Source of the DNA: Candidatus Zixiibacteriota bacterium
GTDB taxonomy: Bacteria > Zixibacteria > MSB-5A5 > GN15 > FEB-12
Direction of reading: 5' to 3'
Assembly (NCBI GenBank): GCA_028289585.1
Contig: JANQPI010000029.1
Coordinates: 12,169-76,168 of the forward strand
Length of the DNA: 64,000 nucleotides
In this document: one piece after another, positions 22,448 through 42,138 of the stretch
Numbering within the stretch: the stretch's first letter is position 1
How the letters are laid out: the number at the start of each line of letters is the position of its first letter
Made by a program: the position numbers and the translations under genes
The notes under the pieces: model-generated
Databases searched by the model: none
Told to the model about the DNA's origin: nothing
Seen by the model: only the letters and a program-made list of their open reading frames with translations

Positions 22448-22484
22448 CGCAGATCCTGCGGCGACACGGGAACCTGTTATTACC

Positions 22485-22539
22485 TTGACCGTTTCCCAAG
22501 TACCGGGTATACTAAAACAGATTCTGCGTTGATATACCC
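22485..22539 (+). promoter_or_regulatory. Sigma70 promoter with an overlapping inverted repeat, upstream of the small secreted ORF
   Basis: TTGACC (22485-22490), 17 nt, TATACT (22508-22513). GGGTATA (22505-22511) / TATACCC (22533-22539) inverted repeat overlaps the -10. Confidence 0.65.
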
Positions 22540-23010: not shown

Positions 23011-25944
23011 ATGCACGACACCTCACCGACGCAAACGACCGATGCCCGGCTTTCCGCGGCATTGGCTGCCTGGGTCGACCGCCGGATTGATGACCTGAAA
23101 GCATCGTTAAGCGAGCTCTCAGCCGATGAGTTCGTCAATCCTGCCGACAAAGGCCTGTTCCATATCATCCAAGGGGACTTGGGACTGCATGAAACCGATT
23201 ACCGGACGGCTATCAAACATGGCCTCGCCGGGGTCCGTGCGCTCGCCAATTCCTCGCACAATGTGCTCTATGCCCGGTCGCTGGTTGTTCTGTCCAAGGC
23301 GTACTACGCGGTTGGCGACCTCCGGCAGGCCGAGATGAAAGCGCGCGATGCCCTCTCGGCATATCGACGGGCTGGCGATATCGACGGCCAGATCAATGCG
23401 TTCAACTTGCAGGCGCGATGCAGCTTCACCCGATCTGACTACCCGGCAGCCGAACGATTCCTGGCCGATGCGGTGACACTCGCCGACGAAAACGAGGAAA
23501 AGCTGGCTCAGCTGACCGGTAACGCTGGTCGCGTGAAGATTCTTACGGGTAAATGGGACGAAGCCGCACGTGATCTGAAATTTGCGCTCGACTACCAAAC
23601 AGCCAACGACAAGCGCTCCTCTCAGGCGATCAACTTGCTATCAATTGGGTATCTGGCCCTTCGCCAGCGGGAGTTCGGCAAAGCCGAAAAGGTTTGGCAG
23701 AAGGCCGAGCGGTTAATCCGTGACCTTTCGCTCAAACGCGAGCAGGTCATTCTCCTCGAGTATCGGGGCGAGTTAGCGCTCGAACGATCTGATCTGTTTC
23801 GAGCCAAAGCGCATCTCAGCGAGGCGTATCATCAGGGGCGCCTGATCGCACCTGATTCGGCGCTCGTCTCCCAGGCGTCGCGACGACTGGCGGAAGTCGA
23901 GTGGGAACTCGACAATCTCGATGATGCGATGAAGCATGCGCAGAAGGCGCTCGACCTGGCACAGCAGCTCGGCGAGCGAATTGAAGCTGCCCTCGCGATG
24001 CGAACGATTGCCCGTATCTTTGCCGCTCACGGTGACGATGATTCGGCTGTTGAGCATATCACCGACGCGATTGCGCTCTGTCGCGACATTGGCGAACCCT
24101 ATGATCTGGCTCGCACGCTCCTTGTCGCCGCAGAACTGGCGAGTCGACCGGCTGTCGACGATTTTGCTCGAGCTCGTTCGTGGTTCGATGAGGCCGGCCG
24201 CATCTTCCGCCGTCTTGATGTCGATTACTGGCTCGCCGAGACCGATTACCGTTTCGGTGTTGTTTTGTGTCAGCAAGGCGAACTGGCTCGCGGTTTCCGC
24301 AAACTCTCACGGGCGGAGCGAATTTTCGCAGCCCTCGATGATTCCGGTCGCGTCCGTGCGGTTGAGCAGTTCATTCGTTCTCTGGCTGACCAGGCGGTTG
24401 CCGTATCGATCTCCGAGCAGAACACCTACAAGGTGTTCGGGAATTTTCTGACCGGAGATGAACTGTCCGACCTGCGGGACGGTCACATCGAAGATGTGTT
24501 CCGTGTCTTGCTCGATCGGTCCCATGGTGACCGGGCGATACTCTACCTGCCCGAATTTGCGTCGCATCCGGTGGTTTCGTCTCACAACATCTCAGCCGAC
24601 ACGGCCAAGTTGTTCGAAGACAACTTCCGACGCCTGATCGGTGAAGAGGTCCACCCGTCGCGACCTACGCTGCTGCTCGATACCCGCCGGGATCCGTATA
24701 TCAACGGACTTTTCGGCTCCGTCCCCGAGGTTGTCGCGTCCGTCATTGTGGTCCCCTTCCAGACTTCGGTGAGTACGACGGGCTACCTGTATGTCGATAA
24801 GCTGTCCGGGGAAGGCGGATTGAATCCGTTCGATCAGGCCGCTTTGAACTTCGCCGTCGGTTTTTCTGACCTGGTTGCGTTCAAGGCCGTGGAAATGCAA
24901 AAGGCATCCCTGATGGAGGATAATCGACGGCTGCGGGCCCAGATCGGCGAGTCTGTCGCCTTTCCGAATATCATTACCCAGAACGCCGACATGAGAGCGC
25001 TGCTTACTCAGGTCCAGCAGGTTGTCGACGCTACCATTACGGTGCTTATCGAAGGTGAGACTGGATCTGGTAAAGATCTTCTCGCCCGTGCGATTCACTA
25101 CAACTCTTCACGGCGCGACAAGCGGTTCATTTCGGTGAATTGTGCGGCCCTTCCTGAAACCTTGCTCGAATCAGAGCTCTTCGGCTATCGCAAGGGCGCG
25201 TTCACCGGTGCCGACCGTGACAAGATGGGGCTGTTTGAGGAAGCCGATGGCGGAACGTTTTTCCTGGATGAAATCGGCGATATGCCGCTTGCCATCCAGG
25301 TGAAGCTGCTGCGTGTCCTGGAAAGCCAGGAGGTCGTTCGACTCGGCGAGTCAACGCCGCGTAAGGTTGATGTTCGCGTTCTCTCCGCGACCAATAAGGA
25401 TCTGCGTGAGGCGATGGCGGCCAACGAGTTCCGTTCGGACCTCTACTATCGCCTGGCGGCGCTGTCGTTCCGGCTCCCGGCTTTGCGGGAACGGACCGAG
25501 GATATTCCCTTGTTGGTGAACCACTTCTTAAACAGTTCGGGAAAAGAGCTGAGTGCATCAGCGATGCAGGCGATGATTCGCTACCCGTGGCCCGGCAACA
25601 TTCGAGAGCTTGAGAATGAGGTCAAGAAGATGATACTCCTCGCAGGCGACCGGGTGCTGATCGACCATGAACTACTGGCTCGCAAGCTGACCGCAGGTTT
25701 ACCCGATTCGCAGGTCCCCGCAACGCCTGAGAATGCGACGGACAGTAAGGGTCTACCCCAGCTGAGCGAGAAATTCTCGCTCTACGATTTCATCGCAGCT
25801 CATGAGAAGCGGTTTCTCATTGCCGCATTGAAGGCGACCAAAGGAGTGAAGAAGCACGCCGCGGCGCGGTTATCGATCCCCGAGTCCACCCTTCGCCTCA
25901 AGCTGAAAGAATACGATATCGATCTGTCACAACTCGATGACTGA
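23011..25944 (+). CDS. TPR-GAF-AAA+-HTH sigma54-dependent transcriptional activator
   Basis: About 460 aa of TPR-like helical repeats, a GAF-like region, Walker A GETGSGKD, ESELFG..KGAFTGA, Walker B FFLDEI, DLYYRL and a C-terminal Fis-type HTH. No receiver domain or TM. Confidence 0.92.
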   Translation: MHDTSPTQTTDARLSAALAAWVDRRIDDLKASLSELSADEFVNPADKGLFHIIQGDLGLHETDYRTAIKHGLAGVRALANSSHNVLYARSLVVLSKAYYAVGDLRQAEMKARDALSAYRRAGDIDGQINAFNLQARCSFTRSDYPAAERFLADAVTLADENEEKLAQLTGNAGRVKILTGKWDEAARDLKFALDYQTANDKRSSQAINLLSIGYLALRQREFGKAEKVWQKAERLIRDLSLKREQVILLEYRGELALERSDLFRAKAHLSEAYHQGRLIAPDSALVSQASRRLAEVEWELDNLDDAMKHAQKALDLAQQLGERIEAALAMRTIARIFAAHGDDDSAVEHITDAIALCRDIGEPYDLARTLLVAAELASRPAVDDFARARSWFDEAGRIFRRLDVDYWLAETDYRFGVVLCQQGELARGFRKLSRAERIFAALDDSGRVRAVEQFIRSLADQAVAVSISEQNTYKVFGNFLTGDELSDLRDGHIEDVFRVLLDRSHGDRAILYLPEFASHPVVSSHNISADTAKLFEDNFRRLIGEEVHPSRPTLLLDTRRDPYINGLFGSVPEVVASVIVVPFQTSVSTTGYLYVDKLSGEGGLNPFDQAALNFAVGFSDLVAFKAVEMQKASLMEDNRRLRAQIGESVAFPNIITQNADMRALLTQVQQVVDATITVLIEGETGSGKDLLARAIHYNSSRRDKRFISVNCAALPETLLESELFGYRKGAFTGADRDKMGLFEEADGGTFFLDEIGDMPLAIQVKLLRVLESQEVVRLGESTPRKVDVRVLSATNKDLREAMAANEFRSDLYYRLAALSFRLPALRERTEDIPLLVNHFLNSSGKELSASAMQAMIRYPWPGNIRELENEVKKMILLAGDRVLIDHELLARKLTAGLPDSQVPATPENATDSKGLPQLSEKFSLYDFIAAHEKRFLIAALKATKGVKKHAAARLSIPESTLRLKLKEYDIDLSQLDD

Positions 25945-26860: not shown

Positions 26861-26890
26861 TTGTCTGGCTGAGATTTGGCTCGATATGAT
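26861..26890 (+). promoter_or_regulatory. Candidate sigma70 promoter of the TonB receptor operon
   Basis: TTGTCT (26861-26866), 18 nt, TATGAT (26885-26890). Confidence 0.4.
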
Positions 26891-27065
26891 AGGGTCCTTC
26901 GGAGTTGCGTCGGGAAGCGTCATCAAACCGCCTGAAAGAGCACGGCTCGTACGTCACACCGGTCTTCACTTACCCGCCATGTGGGCCGATATCGACCGTA
27001 ACGCACACGGTCATCATTCGACTGAGGATAGCATGCTTATGATAGGTCTGCGAGGAGGTTTCGCG

Positions 27066-30000
27066 ATGGGTACCCGGAGACTCTCTGCTCTCTTGGTAAC
27101 GGTCCTATGTGCTGGACTTCTGGGTATTCTGGCGCCAATTGCACAGGCGTCGACGGGAACAATCAAGGGGAAGTTAACCAACGAGGATGGTGAGCCGGTT
27201 GTCGGCGCGTCGGTCTTGGTGGTGGGGACCACGCGTGGTGCCGTAACCGACCTCGACGGAAACTACACCATTCGTAACCTGGAACCGGGTCGTGTCACGC
27301 TGCGCATTACCAGCCTTGAATATGCGACGGTTGAGATCACGGATGTTCTTGTCCGACTCGATATCACAACCGAGCAGAACCAGGTGTTGGAGCGGACAGC
27401 CCTCGAAACGGGTGAGGTTATCACCGTCGAGGGGACTCAGGAAATTATCGACAAGTTCAATGTCGCCAACCAGGTCTCCATTGGTGCCGAAGAGATTCAG
27501 CACCGCCCGGTCCAGACGGTTGACAACATTCTTCAGTCGGTTGCCGGTGTTCAGACAACCAACACGGGTGAGATTTTCATTCGCGGTGGTCGCGCCGGAG
27601 AGGTGGCGTTCATCGTCGACGGTGTTCCGATCTCCGATCCCCTTGGTGGACTCGGTTCGGCGGGGGCGAGCCTTAACCTGACCGCCGGCTCGATCCAGGA
27701 GATTCAGGTCATCAAGGGCGGTTTCGATCCCGAGTTTGGTAACGCCCTTTCGGGTATCGTCAACATCCGGTCCAACTTCGGAAACAAAGACAACACCCAA
27801 CTTTCGATTCAGTACATTACCGATGACCTCGGCAATACCGATCTGAACAAGTACAGCCGCAATCAGGACTTCCTGACACTCACGCTGTCGGGTCCCGATC
27901 CAATTCTCAGCAGCCGCATACTTCCCGCGCTCGGTCTCAAGTTCCTTGAGGGGCGCGAGTTTACGTACTACCTGTATGCCGAAGTGGACAAGAACGACGG
28001 CATCTACCAGTACAACGACTTCACCTCGCCGACGACGCGCTTTGAGCGCCGTGACTTCTCGCTCTTCGGCGTTGGCGTTCCGGAGCGTCTCTTCAATCGC
28101 TACAACATTCAGACGAACTTCCGGTTCCGGCCTCGCCAGAACCTCCAGTTCCGACTCTCCTATAAGCTGTGGGATACGCGCAACACGGCGTTTGGGCGGT
28201 TTGATTGGGAATATCGCTATACCCCGAACACTGCGCAGGTGCAGGAACGTGTTCAGCAGTCGTTGTCGTTCGAAGTTGTCCATGCGGTCGACAAGAACAC
28301 GACGTATGAAGTTCTCCTGTCATACCTTCAGACCGATATCACGCAGAAGCCGGGCGATCCGAACAACCCCGGCCGTGGTCTCGATCCGGACCAGATCCCG
28401 AGTCAGGGTGAATGGGAGCGTTTTAACGACGTCAACGGCAATGGTATCTACGATCCGCCGGAGCCGATCATTAACCTGTTCCCCGATACGGCGCTCTACG
28501 GCACCGACTACAGCGGCCCGGGCTATACGTTTGGCGAGAATCTCTTCCTCGACAATGTCCAGGGTGGCGGCGGTGGTTCGTTTGCCAACTTCCGTTTCAA
28601 CAACAATGGTGTCGTTGACTCGCTCGAGGGTGAGGCCTTTGTCGATCTCAACGGAAACGGTGTGTGGGACGCTGGTGACTTCCTGGTCGACAAGAACGGG
28701 AATGGTCTCTACGACCTTGATCTTCGCGAGCGGGTCTTCACGCCCCGCGCGGAACCGTTCATCGATGGCGACTCAATCATTGGTGAGCCGTTCACCGATT
28801 TGAACGGCAACGGTGTTTACGACGAGGGAATCGACGGCTTCGTAATATCCTTTGGAGCTGACAACCAGGATCTCAACCGCGACGGTATCTACAACGGTCC
28901 GAATCAGATCTGGTCACCCGGCGTTCCGTTCTTCGATCGTAATGGTAACGGTCTCTACGATCCGCCGAACTTCACGTACGATCCGGGCGAGCAGTTCACC
29001 GACGTTAACGGCAACGGCGTCTATGACCGAGGTGGTAGTTCCGACTTCCTGCTTCCCAATACGTATGCCGACGACATCATCTGGCTCGACCAGCAGGTCC
29101 GGACACTTCGGGCCGAGTTCAAGGCGACTCGTCTGGCCGGTAATCACGAGCTGAAGGTCGGTGGCTTCATCCAGCGCGATGATTTCTCGTTCGGACTTAT
29201 CGATCGGCCGTACATTAACTACAGTGGCCGTCCCGATGGTGGTGCGTTCCCCGATCGTGGTGCCTTCCGCGACTTCTATTCGTATGACCCGTGGCAGGGC
29301 GCTCTGTACTTCCGCGATAAGCTGGAGTACGGTTCGATGATCGCGTCGCTCGGTATTCGCTGGGACTTCTTCCTACAGGACGTCAACGATCTGGCGAGCA
29401 CGTTCCGCGACGATGACCAGGGTGGCTTGCTGCTTGGTGATCGCCAGAAGGTCTCGCCGCGTATCGGCTTTTCCTATCCGATTTCCGATAAGGCAAAAGT
29501 CTATTTCAACTACGGTCATTTCTACCAGCTTCCGACGTTCGGACGCTTCTACGCTCGCAATACGTCGTCCGCTAACCAGAACGACGTTCTTGGTAATCCG
29601 AACCTCGACTACCAGAAGACGATTCAGTACGCGTTTGGTGTTCGCTACGCGGTTACCGAGAACTACGCCCTCGACATTCAGGGCTACTTCAAGGACGAGT
29701 TCGACAAGATCAATCAGACCTCTGAACTGCGCGGATCGATTCGCCGAAACGTTTACACTAACTCTGACTACGGTCGTAGCCGCGGCATCGAGTTGACGCT
29801 CGAACGGCGGGGGAGTGGTTACGTAAACGGTGAAATCAGTTACACCTATCAGTTCGCCTTTGGTAAGGCCTCCGAAGCTGCCGAGGCGTTCCTTGATCAG
29901 GGTGAGCTTGATCGCCAGCCGCTCGACGAGGCACCGCTCGACAATGATGTTCGGCACTCGCTCAAATCGTCGATCATCTTCTTCATCCCGTCGACCGTCA

Positions 30001-30404
30001 AGCCGCGACTGTTCGGTATTCCGATCCCGAATGGCTGGACGTTGAACATCACCTCGATCCTTGAGTCAGGGGCACCGTTTACGCCGGCAACGAACTTCCC
30101 GAACCTGAGTCAGTCGGGTGTGACCGATCCGCAGCGTAACTCATTGCGGTATCCAAGCACGGCGTTCTTTGACGTTCGCTTCGCGAAGGAATTCGAGATC
30201 GAGGGCCTCGACTTCGAGGCAATCCTCTGGGTCGAGAACATTTTCGACAATCGCAACGTCGAGTTTGTCTATTCAGCGACCGGTCGTCCCGATACTCGGC
30301 AGAACCGTAACGGTGTCGTGCTGGAGGGGACGCCGTTCGATGTCAACCCGTACAACTATGATGAGGGTCGCCAGGTTCGCCTCGGCCTGCAGCTGAATCT
30401 GTAA
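27066..30404 (+). CDS. TonB-dependent receptor with an N-terminal carboxypeptidase-regulatory-like domain and a Ca-binding repeat insert
   Basis: Likely ATG at 27066 after GAGGAGG. Signal peptide, G.VTDLDGNY.I, plug motifs (IRGGRAGEV...VDGV, GGFDPEFGNALSG), PDLxxQKT-like NPNLDYQKT and C-terminal GRQVRLGLQLNL. Confidence 0.9.
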   Translation: MGTRRLSALLVTVLCAGLLGILAPIAQASTGTIKGKLTNEDGEPVVGASVLVVGTTRGAVTDLDGNYTIRNLEPGRVTLRITSLEYATVEITDVLVRLDITTEQNQVLERTALETGEVITVEGTQEIIDKFNVANQVSIGAEEIQHRPVQTVDNILQSVAGVQTTNTGEIFIRGGRAGEVAFIVDGVPISDPLGGLGSAGASLNLTAGSIQEIQVIKGGFDPEFGNALSGIVNIRSNFGNKDNTQLSIQYITDDLGNTDLNKYSRNQDFLTLTLSGPDPILSSRILPALGLKFLEGREFTYYLYAEVDKNDGIYQYNDFTSPTTRFERRDFSLFGVGVPERLFNRYNIQTNFRFRPRQNLQFRLSYKLWDTRNTAFGRFDWEYRYTPNTAQVQERVQQSLSFEVVHAVDKNTTYEVLLSYLQTDITQKPGDPNNPGRGLDPDQIPSQGEWERFNDVNGNGIYDPPEPIINLFPDTALYGTDYSGPGYTFGENLFLDNVQGGGGGSFANFRFNNNGVVDSLEGEAFVDLNGNGVWDAGDFLVDKNGNGLYDLDLRERVFTPRAEPFIDGDSIIGEPFTDLNGNGVYDEGIDGFVISFGADNQDLNRDGIYNGPNQIWSPGVPFFDRNGNGLYDPPNFTYDPGEQFTDVNGNGVYDRGGSSDFLLPNTYADDIIWLDQQVRTLRAEFKATRLAGNHELKVGGFIQRDDFSFGLIDRPYINYSGRPDGGAFPDRGAFRDFYSYDPWQGALYFRDKLEYGSMIASLGIRWDFFLQDVNDLASTFRDDDQGGLLLGDRQKVSPRIGFSYPISDKAKVYFNYGHFYQLPTFGRFYARNTSSANQNDVLGNPNLDYQKTIQYAFGVRYAVTENYALDIQGYFKDEFDKINQTSELRGSIRRNVYTNSDYGRSRGIELTLERRGSGYVNGEISYTYQFAFGKASEAAEAFLDQGELDRQPLDEAPLDNDVRHSLKSSIIFFIPSTVKPRLFGIPIPNGWTLNITSILESGAPFTPATNFPNLSQSGVTDPQRNSLRYPSTAFFDVRFAKEFEIEGLDFEAILWVENIFDNRNVEFVYSATGRPDTRQNRNGVVLEGTPFDVNPYNYDEGRQVRLGLQLNL
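28428..29027 (+). repeat. Seven DxNGNGx(Y/W)D-type protein repeats in the receptor
   Basis: DVNGNGIYD, DLNGNGVWD, DKNGNGLYD, DLNGNGVYD, DLNRDGIYN, DRNGNGLYD and DVNGNGVYD. Confidence 0.85.
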
Positions 30405-30436: not shown

Positions 30437-31411
30437 ATGAATCGTATTTCTCGCACCCTCAAACGCTCCGGAGCGACGTGGTTGCTACGCGGAGCCGCCA
30501 CAGCCCTTGTTATTGGCTTGCTCCTGCCGAGTTCCGGATTCGGACAGGCAAAAGTTGGCACCACCGGAGCGCAGTTTCTGGAGATCGGTGTCTCGGCGCG
30601 GGCGATGGGAATGGCTGAGGCCTTCACGGCGACGGTTGATGACGTCTCCGCCGTCTATTACAACCCGGCCGCGTTGTCGTATCTCTTTGGTCGTGAGGTC
30701 ATGGCCACGTATGTGAGCCTTCCCGCCGATATCAATTACGGCTTTGCTGCTTTCGGCTTGCCGCTCGAATCGGTCGGCGGTGTTCTCGGTGTGGCGGCAT
30801 ATGCGTTGTCGACCGGTGACATAGTCGAACGAACCTACGAACGACCCCTTGGTACTGGACGAACGTTCTCGGCGAATGACTTTGCGTTCGCGGTTAGCTA
30901 CGGCCGCTACCTGACCGACCGTTTTTCGGTTGGTTTCACCGTCCGGTTCATCCAGCAAATCGCTCACGACTATAGCACATCGGGGTGGTCGGCCGATGTC
31001 GGTACGCTGTATGATACCGGTTTCCGCGGCTTCAAGCTCGCGATGTCGATCTCCAACTTTGGCCCCGACTTGCAGTTCATCGACGAGGACTACCCGATTC
31101 CGATTAACTTCAAATTCGGCGGTTCGATTAACGTTGTCGAGGCGACTGACCACCTGGTCACGTTTGCGGCCGAGGGCTCGCACCCGGCCGATAACCTTGA
31201 GAAGTACAACGCCGGCCTCGAATATACCTTCAACGATCGTTATATCCTGCGCGCCGGCAGCCGGTTCAACTATGATGTCGACGGCCTCACGTTCGGTGGT
31301 GGCCTCCGCCTCCCGTTCGGTGAAGAAGGACAGATCGCTGTTGATTACGCTTACCAGGATTTCGGCATTCTCACCGAGGTGCATCGATTTAGCTTGGGTC
31401 TCGCCTTTTAG
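30437..31411 (+). CDS. PorV/PorQ family outer-membrane protein
   Basis: GTTGAQFLEIGVSARAMGM, A.YYNPA.L and FadL-like barrel ending HRFSLGLAF. Likely start at 30437; the alternative at 30404 overlaps the upstream stop. Confidence 0.88.
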   Translation: MNRISRTLKRSGATWLLRGAATALVIGLLLPSSGFGQAKVGTTGAQFLEIGVSARAMGMAEAFTATVDDVSAVYYNPAALSYLFGREVMATYVSLPADINYGFAAFGLPLESVGGVLGVAAYALSTGDIVERTYERPLGTGRTFSANDFAFAVSYGRYLTDRFSVGFTVRFIQQIAHDYSTSGWSADVGTLYDTGFRGFKLAMSISNFGPDLQFIDEDYPIPINFKFGGSINVVEATDHLVTFAAEGSHPADNLEKYNAGLEYTFNDRYILRAGSRFNYDVDGLTFGGGLRLPFGEEGQIAVDYAYQDFGILTEVHRFSLGLAF

Positions 31412-33868: not shown

Positions 33869-36055
33869 TTAGCGGCCGAGAAGTGGGGCGAGGCGGCGCA
33901 GTGTGGGATGCCCCGGAAAACGCTCACTGGCCATCACGAATAGAGAATCCGCGCGCCGCCGTGCCCCGGTCGTCCAGTGCCCCGAGATCAGGTTGACCCA
34001 CCCCGGTACGAATGTGGAGTCGAGTTCGACCGCCCGCGCCGCAGCCCGAGTTGCCTCGACCAGGTTACCCCGCCGTGCTTCGAGAAGTGACCGCTGCGTC
34101 GCCGCCTCTGCCTGTTGTTGACGCCAGTTGTCAAGCCAACCGAGGTAGTCAGGTCGGAAGAGTTGGTCGCTGATCTCCATCGGCCCGGGCCGACTCTCCT
34201 CTGCTCGAAGTAACCAGCGCACCGCACGTGTGGTGTCACCGAGCGTGGTCCAGACATCAGCAGCCTCGCGAGCGACGCCAATACTGCTGTCAGTACGCGA
34301 CCAGGCTAGTGCCAATAGATCAATAAGCTCACCCGTTGACGTGAGATGAAGAGGTGCCAACCGAATCGCCAGGCGTGTGGTTGTTTCGTCGTAGGGCCGC
34401 AACATGACCGCTCGTTGTGCTGCTTCGATAGCGGCACTCGTGTCACCGGTAAGGATGAGTGAACTGGCGTAGGAGGTCCAGCCGGCGGATCGATCGGGCC
34501 AGCGCTCGACTTCCGCAGCGAAGGCGGACCGGGCGCTGTCGACCAGCCCGAGACGCATCCAAGCCGCACCCAGGTTGAGGTTTACCTCCGGGCGGTCGGG
34601 GGCGAGCTCACGTGCCCGTCGAAAGGCTGACTCCGCCGCCGGATAATCGTTGGCCCGGAGGGCACGTAAACCCCGTGTGCTGGCAGCCTCGGCAGCCGCC
34701 GTGGTTGTCGGCGCTGATGGCAACGGGAGGAAATGTACAGCGAACAGGAGCACAAGCGCGCTTCCAATGCCCAGGGCTAGGCCCGTCCAGTGTCGCTCGC
34801 GAATCTGTGCCGTAATCCACCATGCGAAACCGGAAACGCCGAGCGCAAAGATCGGCAGCAGCGGCATGCGGAAGCGCGAATTGACGAAGAATAGAGCCGT
34901 GATAACGACGAAGCCGATCAGCCAGATCCCGATAGCACCTACCACCGACGACCGCCGCCAAGTCAGGACGAGCCCGATTATCCCCAGCGGGACCAGCCAG
35001 AGCGCCCGCACCGGGAGCCATGAGAGCAGCTGGAATTCCGGTAGCCACGGTTCGCCCGCCCGATTGTTGGCTAACTCGTCGGGCAGCAGATAAAAGCCGA
35101 TGCGCTTCAGGTAGCTCACAGCCCAGTTGAGTGGTTTACCACCGATCTCAATCAAACCGCGACCAAACCAGTAGCGAGAAACGGCGGCCGGCGTCAGCGC
35201 TGCACCCTCGTCGTTCTCTGCGATCCAGGCGATATCCGTCAGCTGCCAGTTGAAGCCGTACGGCTCCGGCATGATCGCCGAAGCTCCATCGGCCTCGGCG
35301 TGATTGCCGAGGTAGAAGTTGATTCCTCCCTGCGTCGCGATCGGTGTGATGTCTTCCGCAACGAGGTAGTTTCGTGTGATGACCGGACCAAGGAACAGGA
35401 GCGTTGCACCGATGATGGGGACAAGTGGTTGCCAGCGCAGGTGCGGTGTCTCACGTTGCTCCCACCAGAGGTAGAGGACTAACCAGGGTAGCCCGAGCAA
35501 GGCTGTTGGCCTCAGCAGCGCTGCCAGACACCAGATGGCTGCTGCCCAGAACACTCGGCCGGTGGTCAGCTTGGCTCCGGCCCGGATGGATAGCCAGAGT
35601 GCGGCTACCAGGGTGAGAGCGAATGGGCTCTCCGCCAGAATCTCTGATTCGTAATAGATCATCACCGGAGAGACTGCGACCAGCAGCCCGGCGAACAAGC
35701 CCGGGATAACTCCGAAGAGATGACGACCCAGGCGGCACGTTACAAGTACCGTCACGACGCCACTGGCAATGCCGAGTAGCCGAGCCGGCCATAGCCCCTC
35801 ACCAAAGAGCCATTGCCATCCGGCGAGGGCAAAAGGGTAGAGCGGCGCCCGAAAGTACGTCGTTTCACCGAGCCAGCCACCGTTCTTGATCCATACGGCC
35901 CAGTTGTACCAGTAGTGGTTATCGACTGTCAGATCATGCCAGATTGGATGCTGAGCATACTCCAGAAGATGAGTTAGGCGAAGACCGGCCGCCAGCACGG
36001 CCAGCGCGACTAGACCGGTAGTCCAACTCAACTCTTCTCGGTGAATCGGAAGCAT
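33869..36055 (-). CDS. GT-C (ArnT/PMT, GT39-like) glycosyltransferase with C-terminal TPRs
   Basis: DxxxY loop (TVDNHYWYNWA), RAPLYP, multiple TMs, RP motif, GGINFYLGN, RFRMP and TPR helices. Confidence 0.82.
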   Translation of the reverse strand: MLPIHREELSWTTGLVALAVLAAGLRLTHLLEYAQHPIWHDLTVDNHYWYNWAVWIKNGGWLGETTYFRAPLYPFALAGWQWLFGEGLWPARLLGIASGVVTVLVTCRLGRHLFGVIPGLFAGLLVAVSPVMIYYESEILAESPFALTLVAALWLSIRAGAKLTTGRVFWAAAIWCLAALLRPTALLGLPWLVLYLWWEQRETPHLRWQPLVPIIGATLLFLGPVITRNYLVAEDITPIATQGGINFYLGNHAEADGASAIMPEPYGFNWQLTDIAWIAENDEGAALTPAAVSRYWFGRGLIEIGGKPLNWAVSYLKRIGFYLLPDELANNRAGEPWLPEFQLLSWLPVRALWLVPLGIIGLVLTWRRSSVVGAIGIWLIGFVVITALFFVNSRFRMPLLPIFALGVSGFAWWITAQIRERHWTGLALGIGSALVLLFAVHFLPLPSAPTTTAAAEAASTRGLRALRANDYPAAESAFRRARELAPDRPEVNLNLGAAWMRLGLVDSARSAFAAEVERWPDRSAGWTSYASSLILTGDTSAAIEAAQRAVMLRPYDETTTRLAIRLAPLHLTSTGELIDLLALAWSRTDSSIGVAREAADVWTTLGDTTRAVRWLLRAEESRPGPMEISDQLFRPDYLGWLDNWRQQQAEAATQRSLLEARRGNLVEATRAAARAVELDSTFVPGWVNLISGHWTTGARRRADSLFVMASERFPGHPTLRRLAPLLGR

Positions 36056-36106
36056 TTCGGTATGTAACTATCCGGCTGCAATCACCCTAACGGAAATCTT
36101 GATCTA

Positions 36107-36241
36107 TGCAGCTGCCTGCACTATCCGCCCCCCGGGACGTCGCGAAAGACGCACCCCTGCAACTCTATGCACGATGTAATTTGTTGATCGACAATGAATT
36201 ACGTCGAGTATCTCGCGTTTCAGTTCGGGCACCCCCTTTGC
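36107..36241 (+). promoter_or_regulatory. Sigma54 promoter with two candidate enhancer sites and an IHF-like site
   Basis: GGCAC-CCCCT-TTGC at 36228-36241 (-24/-12). TGCA-N6-TGCA at 36107-36120 and 36158-36171. The reverse strand of 36177-36189 reads GATCAACAAATTA, versus IHF consensus WATCAANNNNTTR. Confidence 0.72.
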
Positions 36242-36269
36242 GCTAAGGCCTCGTGGAGGAAAGAAGGCT

Positions 36270-39125
36270 ATGCGCACTTGTGGTACACATCTCATTATCG
36301 GACTCCTGCTCATCACGGGCATGGCCACGTCCGCTTCAGCTCGGGGACTGGTCCATCCGAATCTGACTAACCACTCGTCGCAGTTGCCGATGACGATTCT
36401 TGTGGAAGTCGAATCGACTCCCGGATCGCGCCAGCACCTGTCAGCCGCGATGTCCGCTCCGATCCGCACGGATCGCATGAAAGCGGTGCCGAGTGCCGCC
36501 CAGCAGGCCGCAGCCGGTCGCGATAGTCGATTCGTCCCCACCCTTCAGCAGTTTGCCACTGATTCGGTGCGTTCGTTCTGGGTCGCTCCGTTCTATGCTC
36601 TGACGATTAATCCTACCGATCTTGATCTCATCGCCAATCTCGACGGTGTCGTGGCGATCTACCCGAATGTTCCCCTTGAAGCAGTCGCTCCGGTGCGTGT
36701 TGAACCGTCGGGTTCGGCTGCCGGGATTGCTACCGAACTGACAGCGCTCAACGTTCCGGCAGTCTGGTCGCAGGGCTTCACTGGTCGTGGCCGTCTGGTC
36801 TGCTCGTTTGATACGGGTGTCGACGGAGATCATCCTGCCTTGACCAATCGTTGGCGTGGAAACAGCGCGTCTACCGATGCCAGCTGGTTTTCACCGTTGG
36901 CGTCAGCAACACTTCCCACTGACCGAACTGGTCATGGTACTCATACAATGGGAATCATGGTTGGGCGCGACGGTGACGATCGCTTTGGTGTCGCACCGGA
37001 TGCCGAGTGGATTTCCGCCGGCGTGATCGACCAGGGACGTTCTCTGGGCGTTACGATTGCTGACATTCTCGATGCGTTTCAGTGGGCGTTGAATCCGGAT
37101 GGTGATCTCACGACGACCGATGATGTCCCCGACGTGATTCTCAATAGCTGGGGAATTCCAGCCGGTATCTTCGCCGATTGTGACAATAGCTTCTGGGGTG
37201 CCATCGATCTCGTTGAAGCAGCGGGGATCGTCACGATCTTCGCAGCCGGCAACGAAGGTCCGCTGCCGCGCACGGTGCGGGATCCCGCTGATCGGGCCAG
37301 CTCACCGTTGAACGCTTTTTCGGTGGGAGCTGTCGATGCCGAAAGCAGCATCGCCTCGTTCTCGTCGCGGGGCCCGTCGCGCTGCAATCCCGAAGCGGTG
37401 AAACCAGAAGTCGTTGCTCCCGGTGTGTCGATTCGTTCCGCGACAAAGGACGGTGGATATGCGCTTATGAGTGGAACGTCGATGGCCGCGCCGTACATCG
37501 CGGGCCTTGTCGCGTTGGCTCGCGAAGCGTATCCCAACGCCTCGGTCCGTCGTATCAAAGAAGCGCTTATTGCCTCGGCTCAGGATCTCGGCGTACTCGG
37601 TGAAGACAATGCCTACGGCTGGGGGATGGTTGATGCCGCTCTCTTTCTGGAGCTACTCGATGATCCGGCACCAGTGTCGTTCTCGCTTCGTGAGGTTGCT
37701 TGGGAGAATGGTGCAATCGGTGCCCCGGGCTCCGAGATCGGTCTTGAGATCACGCTCGGCCAGTCCGGTGCGCATCTCTCAGCGGTTGCGGCTCGTCTAA
37801 CCAGCCTTGATGCGGAAGCTGCCGAGGTCCAGGGTGATTCGACGTCGTTCCTGTTTGGTCCCATCGGCTCAATCGCACAGACGTCCCAGCCTTTTGTCAT
37901 CACGCTGGCCGATACCCTGACGCACGGTCGGTCACTGGGCTTTGCTCTAAAGCTCTACCGCTCGACCGGAGAACTCATCGACTCGCTCACGTTCGAATTG
38001 GCTGCCGGCTACCCGGCGCCGGGGCTTCTGGGCGCCCATGAGTCAGGCGGTTTGGCCCTTTCCGTTTCGGATTTTGGTCAATTCGGGCTGGCTGCCGGCT
38101 CGCTCTATCCCGTCGGTGGCGAAGGTCTGCGCTTTGGTGGCTCGGATAATCTGCTCTACGAAGGCGCCATCTTTGTCGGCCGCTCGCCGCTCCAACTCGC
38201 GACCGCGACGCGTGGAGACGACGGTCGTTTCGCACCGTCTGACTTTGTCGCTACCGAGGCGCTTGCTACTGGTACCGGAGGTAGCTATCGGGCGACGATG
38301 AAAGACCAGGCGGCTCCGATCCCGATACCGATCACGATTCGTCAGGAGACTGAAGCTGACAGCGACGGTCGGTTCATTATTCTCAAGTATACGATCGTCA
38401 ACACCAGCCTGGAGATCATCTCGAATCTCGCTATGGGTTGTCTGTTTGACCTTGATATGCCTGGTGGAGACATCGTCGATTATGACGCCGTTGAAGGCAT
38501 GCTGACCATCAGAGGCGGGACCGGCCCAATCATCGGGCTGACAGCGCTCGAGAATGGCCGTCTCTTCCATCGGCTCGCAAATGGCAGCGAGAAGCTGGGG
38601 CTTTCCCGCGGCGATCTCTACTCCCTGTTGTCTGACAGTGTATCGCGCGATGATGCGGCGTCGGACGACGCTATGGTTAGTCTTACTTCCCAGCCGGTCA
38701 CCCTCCACCCCGGGGATTCCGCCACTGTCAGTTACGTCGTCCTGGGAGCCGATGACTTCGCGACTGTCTACGACAACCTGATTGCGGCACGGGAACGATA
38801 CCTCTCGCCGACCGACGTTGACGACGACAACCCGCTGGGGCTACCGGATGACTTCACGCTCCACGCCAACTATCCGAACCCGTTCAATCCGACGACCACG
38901 ATCAGCTGGTCGCTGCAGTCACGGGCGCGGGTCGAACTTACGGTCGTCAATCTGCTCGGTCAGACGGTGGCGACGCTGGCCGATGGCGAGTATCCGGCAG
39001 GGACGCATTCTCTGCGCTGGGACTCCCGCGACCAGTCCGGTCGCAGACTGGCCAGCGGTGTCTATTTTGCCCGGCTGACGACCCCGTCGGGGTCCGCTGT
39101 ACGAAAAATGATGCTTCTAAAATAG
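36270..39125 (+). CDS. Secreted S8 (subtilisin-like) serine protease with T9SS/FlgD-Ig C-terminal domain
   Basis: Signal peptide, prodomain, catalytic FDTG / HGTHTMG / GTSMA, and a CTD (ANYPNPFNP...LASGVYF..L). Confidence 0.93.
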   Translation: MRTCGTHLIIGLLLITGMATSASARGLVHPNLTNHSSQLPMTILVEVESTPGSRQHLSAAMSAPIRTDRMKAVPSAAQQAAAGRDSRFVPTLQQFATDSVRSFWVAPFYALTINPTDLDLIANLDGVVAIYPNVPLEAVAPVRVEPSGSAAGIATELTALNVPAVWSQGFTGRGRLVCSFDTGVDGDHPALTNRWRGNSASTDASWFSPLASATLPTDRTGHGTHTMGIMVGRDGDDRFGVAPDAEWISAGVIDQGRSLGVTIADILDAFQWALNPDGDLTTTDDVPDVILNSWGIPAGIFADCDNSFWGAIDLVEAAGIVTIFAAGNEGPLPRTVRDPADRASSPLNAFSVGAVDAESSIASFSSRGPSRCNPEAVKPEVVAPGVSIRSATKDGGYALMSGTSMAAPYIAGLVALAREAYPNASVRRIKEALIASAQDLGVLGEDNAYGWGMVDAALFLELLDDPAPVSFSLREVAWENGAIGAPGSEIGLEITLGQSGAHLSAVAARLTSLDAEAAEVQGDSTSFLFGPIGSIAQTSQPFVITLADTLTHGRSLGFALKLYRSTGELIDSLTFELAAGYPAPGLLGAHESGGLALSVSDFGQFGLAAGSLYPVGGEGLRFGGSDNLLYEGAIFVGRSPLQLATATRGDDGRFAPSDFVATEALATGTGGSYRATMKDQAAPIPIPITIRQETEADSDGRFIILKYTIVNTSLEIISNLAMGCLFDLDMPGGDIVDYDAVEGMLTIRGGTGPIIGLTALENGRLFHRLANGSEKLGLSRGDLYSLLSDSVSRDDAASDDAMVSLTSQPVTLHPGDSATVSYVVLGADDFATVYDNLIAARERYLSPTDVDDDNPLGLPDDFTLHANYPNPFNPTTTISWSLQSRARVELTVVNLLGQTVATLADGEYPAGTHSLRWDSRDQSGRRLASGVYFARLTTPSGSAVRKMMLLK

Positions 39126-39230: not shown

Positions 39231-42071
39231 ATGCGCCTGCGTTTGCTCACGTTGATTGCCGCGACTGCGGTCCTTGTCTCAGTTGCGCCACGTGCTTTTG
39301 GCTGTGCACCATCCCCGGAAGCCGTCGAGAAGTGGGAGAAAGAGGGAGTCCTCGAAGAAAAGATGGCGGCGTGGCATAAGCATCACCCGGGTGGTTCTAA
39401 ACCGGCGACAACGCCTGCCCTGCCAACCCGAGCTGCTCGTGGTTTGGCGACCGCCGATGCTCCGGACACGATGTACGTGCCGGTTGTCCTGGTCGACTTC
39501 CCCGACTACAAATGGGATCAATCGACCTACACGGTCGGTAGTCAAACCGTCCTGACCGGAGGCGTGAGTGCCACGCCGGATGACTTCCAAGATCTTCTCT
39601 TTTCCCGGTCCGGTGAACCCGGCAACCCGCCGAACGGATCGTTTACCGACTTCTACTTCGAGGCATCGAACGGCAAGCTGGTCGTCATCGGTGACATCTT
39701 TGGCTGGCATACCGCACCCAACAATTACGAGACGTACGTTCAAGGAGCAGCAAACGGACTCTCGGGAGGCGGCGCCGACCTCGCCTACGACGCTGTCTGG
39801 CTGGCGAAGAATGAAGGTGGTGCGGACTTCTCAAAGTACGACAATAACAACAACGGGATCGTTGAAGGGTTGATCGTCATCCATGCCGGTCCGGGTGCGG
39901 AAACGGGTGCCTATGGCATTTGGTCGCACCGGTCCGTCTTCAGCCCGGCGCACCAGTACGATGGCGTCACGATTTCTGACTACACGATGAACCCTGAAGA
40001 GTACTCAGGCAACATCACGACGATCGGTGTGATCTGCCACGAATTCGGTCACGCTCTTGGACTCCCTGATCTCTATGATCTGAATCCGAATCAGAGCCTG
40101 CGACGCGGTGGTATCGGTCGGTGGTCGGTAATGGCGTCGGGCAGCTGGAATGGCAACGGTGGTGACATTCCGTCGCAGTTTGATGCGTGGAGTCGGTTCC
40201 AGCTGAATCAGTTCAACAACACTGACGTTTTCGGCGAGGTTATCGTCGTCGAAAGTAACATGGGGCAGGTTGAGATTCCGGCCGCGACGTCTAATGCCGT
40301 AACGTACGCCCTCCGCGATCGCAATGATCCAATAGCGACTGACGTTTGGTTTGTCGAAAATCGTCAGCGGGAAGGGTTCGATGCGGCGCTTCCGGGTGAG
40401 GGACTTTTCATTTGGCACTGGGACCGTGAAGTGACGCGTCAAGATAACGCGAATCGCTACATGGTCGGCCTTGAACAAGCTGATGGGCTCTTTCAGCTCG
40501 AGAACAGCGGCGGCGGCGGCGATTCCGGCGATCCGTTCCCGGGCGGGACGAATAACCGGGAGTTTTCGGTGTTTACGAATCCGTCGGCGATTAGCTGGAA
40601 CGGCGACTCGACCCAGGTTTCGGTCGACAACATTTCGGACAATGGTCCGGTGATGTACGCCGATCTGAATATCTCCTACAATCGTGCCCGCATCGTCTTG
40701 ATCGACGAGCCCGACTCAGTTCAGTTCCTCGATGCCGCGCCCGGCGGCAACGCCAATGGCGTTCTGGAAGCCGGGGAGACGATCTCCTTCGATATGGGCG
40801 TGCGCAACATCGCCCTCGCGGGTAACTTCGGAAAAGTCACGGTGACGCCAAGCAATCCCGCTATTGTCATGTCCAACAATGGCGAGATGAAGATGGACAA
40901 GGTCTTCAACACCGTCTTCGACGAGATCCGTCTTGACGAGCCGTTGACGTTTACCATCCCTACCGACTGGGCGTCACAGAATGTGACGTTCAACGTTGTT
41001 CTTGCCATCGACTCCGTATTCAATCCTGAACCGACGACCGGCGAGTGGGAATTCGAGTTTAACTTCACCCGCCTGCTTGGCCGTCCGCAGGTGCTGATTG
41101 TTGATGATGATGCCTCGACGGCGTCGAACAAAATCGCCGCACTGATGGATCGCATCAATCGTCCGTATGGGATGCACGTCAAAGACGTATCAGGCTCCCC
41201 GGACTTCTCGACACTGTCGAGTTATCCGATCGTGCTCTGGCACACTGGCACCAACCAGCCAGGGCAGGGGGGAACGTTGACGTCCGCCGATATCAGCGCT
41301 CTGAAGCAGTACCTCGACAACGGAGGTTCACTTATTCTCTCGACCCTCGATGGGATCGGTGAGATGGAGGCAATCGATGCTGATTTCGTGACGTCGTATC
41401 TGCGCGTCCTTCCGGATAGTCAGGTCTTCCGTCAGGTCTTCCGCGGTGTCGATTCCGATCCGATCTCCGATGGCCTCGTCTATCAGCTGTCATCGGGAGC
41501 GACCGGTTTTCATCGGATCATCAATCCGGGAACCGATGCCCGGACGGTCTTTGACCTTGTGGACAATCCGATCGCGACGGAGAGCCGTGGTTCGATCGGT
41601 GTGGTCTACGAAAGTTCGTCGTATCGGACGATGGTTCTGACCTTTGCGTTGGAATTCGCCAGCCCGGGTTCTGGCAGTTTCCCGCTCGATACGTTAGTTG
41701 ATCGTGTCATCGCCGAGTTTGCTCGCGGCGCGGCAACGGATGTCGATGATGACAACACGGGTACCGTGTTGCCGCGCAGCTTTACCCTTGATCAGAACTA
41801 CCCGAATCCGTTCAACCCGACCACGACGATCAGCTACACGATCGGCAGTGACAGCGAAACCGGTCGTCCGGCCCGGGTGCTGCTTGAGGTGTTCAACGTC
41901 CTCGGTCAGCGGATCACGACTCTCGTCGATCGCGTCCAGCCTCCGGGGAGCTACTCGGTAGACTGGAATGGCCGTTCTGACGACGGTACGGTGGCCGCCA
42001 CGGGCATCTACTTCTATCGACTGCAGTTCGACGGTGCGAGTCAGGCGCGCAAAATGGTGCTGCTCAAGTAA
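39231..42071 (+). CDS. Secreted M6 (immune inhibitor A-like) metalloprotease with T9SS/FlgD-Ig C-terminal domain
   Basis: VVLVDFPD, IVIHAGPGAE, HEFGHALGLPDLYD, WSVMASGSW, ENRQ..GFD and CTD QNYPNPFNP...ATGIYFY. Confidence 0.93.
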   Translation: MRLRLLTLIAATAVLVSVAPRAFGCAPSPEAVEKWEKEGVLEEKMAAWHKHHPGGSKPATTPALPTRAARGLATADAPDTMYVPVVLVDFPDYKWDQSTYTVGSQTVLTGGVSATPDDFQDLLFSRSGEPGNPPNGSFTDFYFEASNGKLVVIGDIFGWHTAPNNYETYVQGAANGLSGGGADLAYDAVWLAKNEGGADFSKYDNNNNGIVEGLIVIHAGPGAETGAYGIWSHRSVFSPAHQYDGVTISDYTMNPEEYSGNITTIGVICHEFGHALGLPDLYDLNPNQSLRRGGIGRWSVMASGSWNGNGGDIPSQFDAWSRFQLNQFNNTDVFGEVIVVESNMGQVEIPAATSNAVTYALRDRNDPIATDVWFVENRQREGFDAALPGEGLFIWHWDREVTRQDNANRYMVGLEQADGLFQLENSGGGGDSGDPFPGGTNNREFSVFTNPSAISWNGDSTQVSVDNISDNGPVMYADLNISYNRARIVLIDEPDSVQFLDAAPGGNANGVLEAGETISFDMGVRNIALAGNFGKVTVTPSNPAIVMSNNGEMKMDKVFNTVFDEIRLDEPLTFTIPTDWASQNVTFNVVLAIDSVFNPEPTTGEWEFEFNFTRLLGRPQVLIVDDDASTASNKIAALMDRINRPYGMHVKDVSGSPDFSTLSSYPIVLWHTGTNQPGQGGTLTSADISALKQYLDNGGSLILSTLDGIGEMEAIDADFVTSYLRVLPDSQVFRQVFRGVDSDPISDGLVYQLSSGATGFHRIINPGTDARTVFDLVDNPIATESRGSIGVVYESSSYRTMVLTFALEFASPGSGSFPLDTLVDRVIAEFARGAATDVDDDNTGTVLPRSFTLDQNYPNPFNPTTTISYTIGSDSETGRPARVLLEVFNVLGQRITTLVDRVQPPGSYSVDWNGRSDDGTVAATGIYFYRLQFDGASQARKMVLLK

Positions 42072-42101: not shown

Positions 42102-42138
42102 ACGGCCCGGTGATGTGATCACCGGGCCGTTTCTCTTT
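42102..42138 (+). terminator. Intrinsic terminator after the M6 protease gene
   Basis: 13-bp stem ACGGCCCGGTGAT-GTG-ATCACCGGGCCGT followed by TTCTCTTT. Confidence 0.87.

Follow-up and report, generated by a model that had tools for sequence, protein, structure and literature searches.

A conserved sigma54-like promoter element with AtoC-type TGCA-N6-TGCA sites upstream of type IX-sorted protease genes in a Zixibacteria genome

Introduction

Activators of the NtrC family act on dyads located about 100 to 140 bp upstream of sigma54 promoters, as NtrC does at glnAp2 and other targets. The NtrC sites have the geometry TGCA-N9-TGCA (TGCACC-N5-GGTGCA). In the AtoSC/atoDAEB system of Escherichia coli the spacing is shorter: the AtoC sites GCTATGCAGAAATTTGCACA and GCTATGCAGAAAATTGCGCA, of the form TGCA-N6-TGC(A/G), were verified experimentally (PMC3118216, Table 5). 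Relative to the TGGCAC of the atoD promoter, their first bases are found 119 and 100 bp upstream in the E. coli chromosome. In this work we describe a comparable arrangement in the intergenic region at positions 36056-36269 of a 64,000-nucleotide stretch of DNA (contig JANQPI010000029.1, assembly GCA_028289585.1), hereafter the window, from a Candidatus Zixiibacteriota bacterium. The region precedes the genes for two secreted proteases, an S8 subtilase and an M6 (InhA-like) metalloprotease, and includes a sigma54-like -24/-12 element and two TGCA-N6-TGCA dyads (Table 1).

The resemblance to the AtoSC/atoDAEB system is close. Both loci combine a promoter of the TGGCAC-N5-TTGC type with two TGCA-N6-TGC(A/G) sites, the first of which begins 119 bp upstream of the -24 element in E. 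coli and 120 bp upstream of it at this locus, and the distal site tCTATGCAGctgccTGCACt is identical to GCTATGCAGAAATTTGCACA at 13 of 13 non-spacer positions (CTATGCAG...TGCAC). The differences are in the arrangement and the targets. While the 20-bp E. coli sites abut and form a 40-bp inverted palindrome, the two dyads found here stand 51 bp apart, and the genes behind them encode secreted proteases rather than functions in short-chain fatty acid catabolism. The NtrC systems share the dyads at a similar distance from a sigma54 promoter, but their sites have the N9 spacing instead of the N6 spacing of the protease promoter.

Results

In the -24/-12 element GGGCACCCCCTTTGCG, which is correctly oriented and located 28 bp before the ATG of the S8 gene, the spacing between the GG and GC doublets is exactly 10 bp. 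Counting from the C of the -12 doublet (36241), transcription is predicted to start near 36253, just 5′ of the GGAGG sequence. The case for a promoter is far above chance because of the comparison with relatives and a genome-wide association, not because of counts within the window. One clear copy of the S8 orthologue was present in 60 of 61 related genomes, nearly all of different genera, with 39-49% identity, and the promoter comparison was carried out on the 29 orthologous S8 loci with upstream sequence. All 29 loci had a sigma54-like element just 5′ of the S8 gene, with scores from 10.3 to 19.5 bits, and the gap between the element and the candidate start codon was 28-52 bp in the dozen or so loci where it could be read. 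After alignment on the element, GGCA (-25 to -22) and TTGC (-15 to -12) were invariant in every locus, positions -32 to -27 were essentially without constraint, and the consensus was cGGCAta.CCTTTGCt. The scan forced GG and GC only. As a control, the 900 bp upstream of 27 orthologous TonB-receptor genes were analyzed and contained neither a positionally conserved element nor TGCA-N6-TGCA. Sigma54 control of the neighboring TonB-PorV operon was rejected for lack of a conserved element in those 27 related loci.

Counts within the window are modest. The exact -24/-12 string occurred once compared to 0.41 expected (at least one in 34 of 100 shuffles) and is not significant alone, and the 16-mer consensus with two mismatches allowed gave 19 matches compared to 23 expected. 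TGCA-N6-TGCA was found twice, both times at the protease promoter, against an expectation of 0.69, and at least two copies appeared in 12 of 100 shuffles. The host genome (3.15 Mb, 57% G+C, approximately 9% intergenic) encodes rpoN, recognized by one Sigma54_DBD match (1.4e-56), and 13 full bacterial enhancer-binding proteins (bEBPs; Sigma54_activat proteins) with differing helix-turn-helix (HTH) helices.

Several additional observations concern the element. In many relatives (loci L021-L049) the -12 region sits in the palindrome CCTTTGC(T)CAAAGG, at positions -18 to -5. The corresponding palindrome in the window is CCTTTGCGCTAAGG (36234-36247), and it may represent a site for a repressor or else an extended context of the -12 region. 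In family f14, one of the families of related genomes, the S8 homologues are preceded by GGCAT-N5-TTTGA or GGCAT-N5-TTTGT (loci L165-L170), in which the near-invariant GC of the -12 region is replaced by GA or GT; two of five also have an upstream TGCA-N6-TGCA, and the element is either a decayed or a variant sigma54 promoter. The two best matches to the sigma54 matrix in the whole genome are identical copies of TGGCACACTAATTGCA (C42:5930-5945 and 30807-30822). They are located about 25 kb apart on one contig, inside called open reading frames (ORFs), and may be a repeated element.

The dyads were recovered independently of this locus. A dyad scan covering all trinucleotide pairs at spacings of 0-12 bp, performed on the sequences of 28 relatives with this locus left out and evaluated with 100 shuffles, placed GCA-N7-GCA at the top, with 26 of 28 sequences compared to 5.9 expected, followed by GCA-N6-TGC with 22 of 28 compared to 3.0 expected; the maximum reached by any dyad in the shuffles was 17. 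The spacing was specific, since YGCA-Nx-TGCR was counted 25 times in the related loci for N6, compared to four for N4, seven for N5 and none for N7 or N8. In the 29 upstream regions (220 bp each) TGCA occurred 119 times, in position classes at 120-200 and 20-40 bp upstream of -26. Upstream of -26, the proximal N6 sites of the relatives begin at distances of 25, 36 (in seven loci), 46-47 (in three), 60 and 69-70 bp; these distances step by one helical turn, in phase with the promoter. In the window, the two dyads and a lone half-site amount to five TGCA in 95 bp, one of five such clusters in the genome.

Two 8-nucleotide direct repeats were also observed in the promoter region. One, ACTATCCG, is found at 36067-36074 and 36120-36127 (spacing 53), and the other, TCTATGCA, at 36103-36110 and 36164-36171 (spacing 61). 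The TCTATGCA repeat indicates that the left half of the distal site and the right half of the proximal site share an extended half-site. In about 14 relatives (loci L021-L046), a conserved CTG(T/A)AAAAANTTGC lies approximately 185-205 bp upstream of -26, at the far end of the intergenic region between the PMT_2 and S8 genes. It is not present in the shorter region of this genome, and it may belong to the promoter of the divergent gene.

A search of the whole genome identified 24 exact TGCA-N6-TGCA sites, 16 of them intergenic. Eleven of the 24 had a sigma54-like element, scoring 10 bits or more and directed away from the site, at a distance of 60-215 bp, and seven of these 11 elements were 107-126 bp from their N6 site. 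When the same test was applied to spacings N2-N5, N7, N8, N10 and N11, zero to two sites qualified for each. The N9 spacing gave four of 19 and is probably a separate, NtrC-type enhancer class; one TGCA-N9-TGCA example, at C23:253190, is the NtrC-like TGCACACCTTTTGTGCA. The genes behind the N6-linked elements include a second S8 protease with a sorting domain, a C25 peptidase and a cohesin protein with a sorting domain, as well as a 2920-residue PKD protein, a FlgF/G rod protein, a Bac_transf sugar transferase for exopolysaccharide (EPS), a PAS histidine kinase and a CpeT-family protein. From their sequence context, the N6 operators are likely to mark about ten further sigma54-like promoters of a co-regulated set. 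The EPS N6 promoter is located 4.7 kb from the bEBP gene at C16:34849, and the flagellar one 11 kb from the bEBP gene at C16:84003.

These results support part of an earlier reading of the window (the original prediction), which was made from its nucleotide sequence alone. The -24/-12 element, the ribosome-binding site, both dyads and a match to an integration host factor (IHF) site were all confirmed where it had placed them. Its proposal of a sigma54 promoter in front of the secreted protease genes was borne out by the presence of rpoN and 13 bEBP genes and by the element in all 29 orthologous loci. The idea that TGCA-N6-TGCA is an enhancer-type operator held as well, as the motif was recovered in relatives, is specific in spacing, is helically phased and is linked to sigma54-like elements throughout the genome. 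The scan for N6 sites near -24/-12 motifs that it had put forward as a means to define a regulon was positive, with 11 of 24 sites.

The role assigned to the IHF-like site fared less well. There is a match, GATCAACAAATTA, with one mismatch to WATCAANNNNTTR, and it does lie between the enhancer and the promoter as proposed, but such matches are at chance level in the window (20 versus 22 expected). A match was present in nine of the 29 related upstream regions compared to 4.9 expected, a weak enrichment, with the matches of the relatives clustering 71-95 bp upstream of -26. The match in the window is inside an imperfect inverted repeat (36167-36186 and 36192-36211, with 20-nucleotide arms that are 75% complementary), a setting that is atypical for IHF and points to a dimeric factor or chance instead. 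Two HU/IHF-family proteins are encoded in the genome, both below the IHF equivalog cut-offs, and one of them (G000:C16:159420-159683) scores 90 bits with IHF models versus 56 bits with HU models. The proposed enhancer-bend-promoter layout is like that of the IHF-assisted promoters nifH, Pu and glnHp2, from which this locus differs by having a match at chance frequency. An IHF site is not needed for the sigma54 model.

The organization of the protease genes is also conserved, with the M6 gene immediately 3′ of the S8 gene in 27 of the 29 related loci. No sigma54 element and no sigma70-type match were found in the 105-bp gap between the two genes, and a separate promoter for the M6 gene was rejected since none was seen in that gap. 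Because this promoter-less gap is combined with a terminator-like hairpin after the M6 gene, the M6 gene is probably co-transcribed with the S8 gene. The region 36056-36269 was equally free of any sigma70-type match that we could find.

Discussion

In the model that we favor, the sigma54 holoenzyme would occupy GGCAC/TTGC in the 214-bp intergenic region and start the S8/M6 transcript near 36253. The operon would end at the hairpin at 42102-42130, and its products carry sorting domains for type IX secretion. An NtrC-family bEBP is proposed to bind the two TGCA-N6-TGCA dyads, approximately 140 and 89 bp upstream of the start. Following the mechanism established for this class, the bound activator would oligomerize, contact the closed complex of the sigma54 holoenzyme by looping of the DNA and open the promoter by ATP hydrolysis. 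We infer the sigma54 dependence, the enhancer function and the operon structure from the conservation, spacing and genome-wide association described above, and we estimate a probability of about 0.8 that a genuine sigma54 promoter with NtrC-family enhancer dyads drives the S8/M6 operon.

Some observations weigh against this model. The protease promoter scores only 10.6 bits, which places it at rank 36 among the intergenic, correctly oriented candidates of the genome and at about 300 overall; these ranks are approximate because the sigma54 weight matrix is a rough one, based on the published consensus, and the ORF calls are crude. Taken by itself, the matrix score would leave the odds of a genuine sigma54 site roughly even. 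The predicted S8 leader has only about 17 nucleotides. The related genomes are all from one class, and the loci are not fully independent. In addition, part of the role of the distal TGCA sites could lie in the control of the divergent PMT_2 gene.

The protease promoter belongs to a known kind, that of sigma54 promoters with bEBP enhancers, and is a well-conserved case with an operator of the AtoC type. To our knowledge, a TGCA-N6-TGCR core at about 120 bp from a -24 element has been verified experimentally only for E. coli AtoC, and its recurrence here suggests that this operator geometry spans distant phyla. The promoter would provide a first regulatory handle on the secreted, type IX-sorted proteases of a lineage without a cultured member. 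The regulon likely comprises about ten promoters, including those of the C25 peptidase, other sorted surface proteins, the flagellar rod gene and the EPS transferase. In Porphyromonas gingivalis, PorX/PorY and the extracytoplasmic function (ECF) sigma factor SigP control the type IX secretion machinery genes. Both cases tie transcriptional control to the type IX secretion pathway, but there the machinery genes are reached through an ECF sigma factor, whereas here the cargo genes (S8, M6, C25 and cohesin with sorting domain) are found behind sigma54-type promoters. The promoter set fits a published view of sigma54, which has been characterized as controlling the exterior of bacteria (PMC3162934).

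The activator that we tentatively propose, at slightly less than even odds and by analogy with E. coli, is an AtoC-like REC-AAA+-HTH_8 response regulator (G000:C20:463908-465311). Its gene is located 3′ of one for a histidine kinase. Among the NCBIfam models AtoC gives the best match to the protein, which shares 40% identity with E. coli AtoC. The recognition helix, ISYRSLLYKIKDY, is similar to that of AtoC, ISRRALMYKLQEY, while that of the TPR/sigma54-AAA+/HTH_8 protein encoded at 23011 in the window (hereafter the TPR activator), IPESTLRLKLKEY, is less AtoC-like. Such a comparison of HTH sequences is no more than suggestive for naming the activator, and the AtoC-like regulator fits better than the TPR activator. 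Upstream of the AtoC-like gene, 26 of 26 relatives have TGCA-N6-TGC[GC]-N7-[GC]GCA followed by a TTGATT...GATACT promoter. An orthologue was present in all 26 class members tested (58-66% identity, compared to 41-45% for paralogues), so that its distribution discriminates nothing. Further points count against this choice. The regulator scores 445 bits with the NCBIfam AtoC model, whose cut-off is 714, and is not an established orthologue; the TPR activator is likewise 40% identical to AtoC over the AAA+ and HTH region. The assignment rests on analogy, and 40% identity to AtoC is ordinary in the family. Autoregulation through the site before its own gene is assumed.

The site itself lies in a 110-bp gap between the histidine kinase and AtoC-like genes (C20:463798-463907; loci L101-L128 in the relatives), where we observed TGCA-N6-TGC[AGC]-N7/8-GCA together with TTGATT...GATACT.

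It is also quite possible, though we consider it somewhat less so, that another of the remaining 11 bEBPs drives the protease promoter, or that several paralogues sharing the TGCA-N6-TGCA geometry do; the distal and proximal sites might even be read by different proteins. The differing HTH helices of the 13 bEBPs are in favor of such an arrangement, as are the functional diversity of the genes that follow the N6 promoters, some of which are near other bEBP genes, and the separation of the sites of the relatives into a distal (120-200 bp) and a proximal (25-70 bp) class. On the other hand, the spacing appears to be regulator-specific, with a separate N9 class and no enrichment of N5, N7 or N8, which argues against a generic motif, and synteny with the S8 locus is not seen for any other bEBP gene.

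The original prediction had named the TPR activator as the nearest candidate, and had drawn a parallel with the control of secreted proteases, including InhA-type enzymes, by NprR and PlcR in the Bacillus cereus group. In a model of this kind the TPR activator would bind the dyads and activate the protease promoter in an RRNPP-like circuit operating through sigma54, possibly responding to a small exported protein with a PWD motif that is encoded just 5′ of 23011. There is a similarity in gene content: a TPR regulator stands beside a gene for a small exported protein, with secreted proteases, among them an M6 (InhA-type) enzyme, nearby. RRNPP proteins have an N-terminal HTH, act at sigma70-family promoters and are found in Firmicutes. 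The protein at 23011, in contrast, consists of TPR, then sigma54 AAA+, then a C-terminal HTH_8. The parallel found no support beyond analogy, as the evidence does not tie the TPR protein to the protease promoter.

Synteny at the family level does speak for the TPR activator. Its orthologue is located 13-23 kb (about 13.4 kb in most cases) upstream of the S8 gene and on the same strand in about 30 genomes (families f1, f2 and part of f3), and 19 of 20 related loci have the gene for the small exported PWD-motif protein together with it. The TonB operon between the TPR gene and the proteases had no sigma54 element in 27 related loci, families f3 and f4 have almost no sigma54-like element within 8 kb of the regulator, and in f3 the regulator gene is followed directly by genes whose products look like M28-type peptidases by sequence only. 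However, in f4 and most of f3 the regulator is found on a different contig or at a distance of up to 1 Mb, and the TonB-PorV-PMT_2-S8-M6 block is intact there and keeps its sigma54 promoter. The operon of the TPR activator has conserved operators of its own, CGCA-N5-TGCG, with a different spacing and around a sigma70 promoter of the TTGACA type. Exact copies of this motif in the genome showed no association with sigma54 elements, and a sigma54 regulon behind the CGCA-N5-TGCG operator was looked for genome-wide and none was found. The N6 motif, on the contrary, is present at about ten dispersed promoters including those of flagellar and EPS genes. The TPR orthologue is also missing from families f9, f13, f14 and f17. 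In the five genomes of f9, which have generic TPR matches only (at most 44 bits), a sigma54-like element (TGGCCTnnCCTTTGCA in most) precedes the S8 homologue in five of five, and one N6 site is located 130-132 bp upstream in four of five. This argument from absence is not airtight, because in one f9 genome there is an unrelated TPR-PAS-bEBP whose AAA+ domain is 37% identical. The link between the TPR activator and the protease promoter is thus weakened by the N5 operators at its own gene and by the promoter that f9 keeps without an orthologue, and we regard it as unlikely. The TPR/peptide model, attractive as it is, is corrected by these results, in that another regulator is better supported than the nearest one.

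The TPR-activator operon has some features worth recording. It is led by the small exported PWD-motif gene, and a sigma70-type promoter, TTGACC-N17-TATACT, is found at 22486-22514. In most of 19 relatives (loci L132-L151), CGCA-N5-TGCG dyads are located upstream of the -35 and just after the -10; the upstream dyad in the window is CGCAGATCCTGCG (22448-22460). By sequence, the pair looks like an autoregulatory or repressor operator pair. In f3 (loci L093, L098 and L099), one or two genes of about 945 amino acids follow the TPR activator after a terminator; they have an M28-type look and dockerin-like C-termini, judged by motifs only, and no sigma54 element was seen between them and the TPR activator gene.

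A dual input, in which the AtoC-like regulator and the TPR activator both act on the TGCA dyads and the latter senses the PWD-motif protein or peptides released by the proteases, seems more unlikely still. If true, it would represent a peptide-responsive, RRNPP-like circuit acting through sigma54 on type IX-secreted proteases in an uncultivated phylum.

Two explanations concern the promoter itself. The dyads could be operators of a regulator other than a bEBP, such as a repressor, or could control the PMT_2 gene, with the sigma54 promoter activated from other sites or from solution. The conserved divergent intergenic region is compatible with this explanation, the proximal sites of the relatives at 25-47 bp upstream of -26 are unusually close for an enhancer, and an N6-type site is also found before the sigma70-like promoter of the AtoC-like regulator gene. 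Nevertheless, the distances between N6 sites and sigma54-like elements throughout the genome are like those of enhancers (107-126 bp in seven cases), and the experimentally verified AtoC enhancer is matched even in its distance from the promoter, making this explanation improbable. That the motifs are chance occurrences and the proteases are read from an unrecognized sigma70-family promoter is scarcely credible: although none of the three motifs is clearly above chance within the window alone, the conservation of the element in 29 of 29 loci, where GGCA and TTGC never vary, is in agreement with the TonB-receptor control, the specific spacing and the link to sigma54-like elements across the genome, and the promoter region has no sigma70-like match.

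Other Features of the Locus

The coordinates of the elements and genes are collected in Table 1. The gene calls in this work are crude longest-ORF calls, so that the label intergenic is approximate.

Table 1. Sequence features and genes at the protease locus (positions in the window)
Feature	Position	Strand	Remarks
-24/-12 element GGGCACCCCCTTTGCG	36227..36242	+	GGCAC-N5-TTGC at 36228-36241; GG at 36228-9, GC at 36240-1
Distal putative enhancer site TGCAGCTGCCTGCA, extended tCTATGCAGctgccTGCACt	36107..36120		Starts 120 bp upstream of -26; center at about -140 (139.5 bp from 36253)
Proximal putative enhancer site TGCAACTCTATGCA	36158..36171		Starts 69 bp upstream of -26; center at about -89 (88.5 bp from 36253)
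Lone extra TGCA half-site	36077..36080		
IHF-like match GATCAACAAATTA	36177..36189	-	One mismatch to WATCAANNNNTTR; A/T-rich, between enhancer and promoter
Shine-Dalgarno sequence GGAGG	36255..36259	+	10 nt 5′ of the ATG (36270)
S8 subtilase gene	36270..39125	+	951 aa; type IX secretion C-terminal sorting domain
M6 (InhA-like) metalloprotease gene	39231..42071	+	946 aa; type IX secretion sorting domain
Terminator-like hairpin	42102..42130	+	13-bp stem, 3′ of the M6 gene
PMT_2/TPR glycosyltransferase-like gene	33869..36055	-	Divergent; shares the 214-bp intergenic region with S8
TPR/sigma54-AAA+/C-terminal HTH_8 activator gene	23011..25944	+	Membership in the protease unit doubtful

The PMT_2 gene is divergent to the S8 gene in 28 of the 29 related loci, two of which are partial matches only. 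When the S8 protein was compared with public genome contigs, most of the matches were distant and partial, principally to catalytic domains from Planctomycetota. A search of positions 35950-36400 against Rfam detected no known RNA family. The 5′ end of the TonB-receptor ORF (26886-30404) is probably called some 50 codons too early, as the frame in the relatives opens near residue 55.

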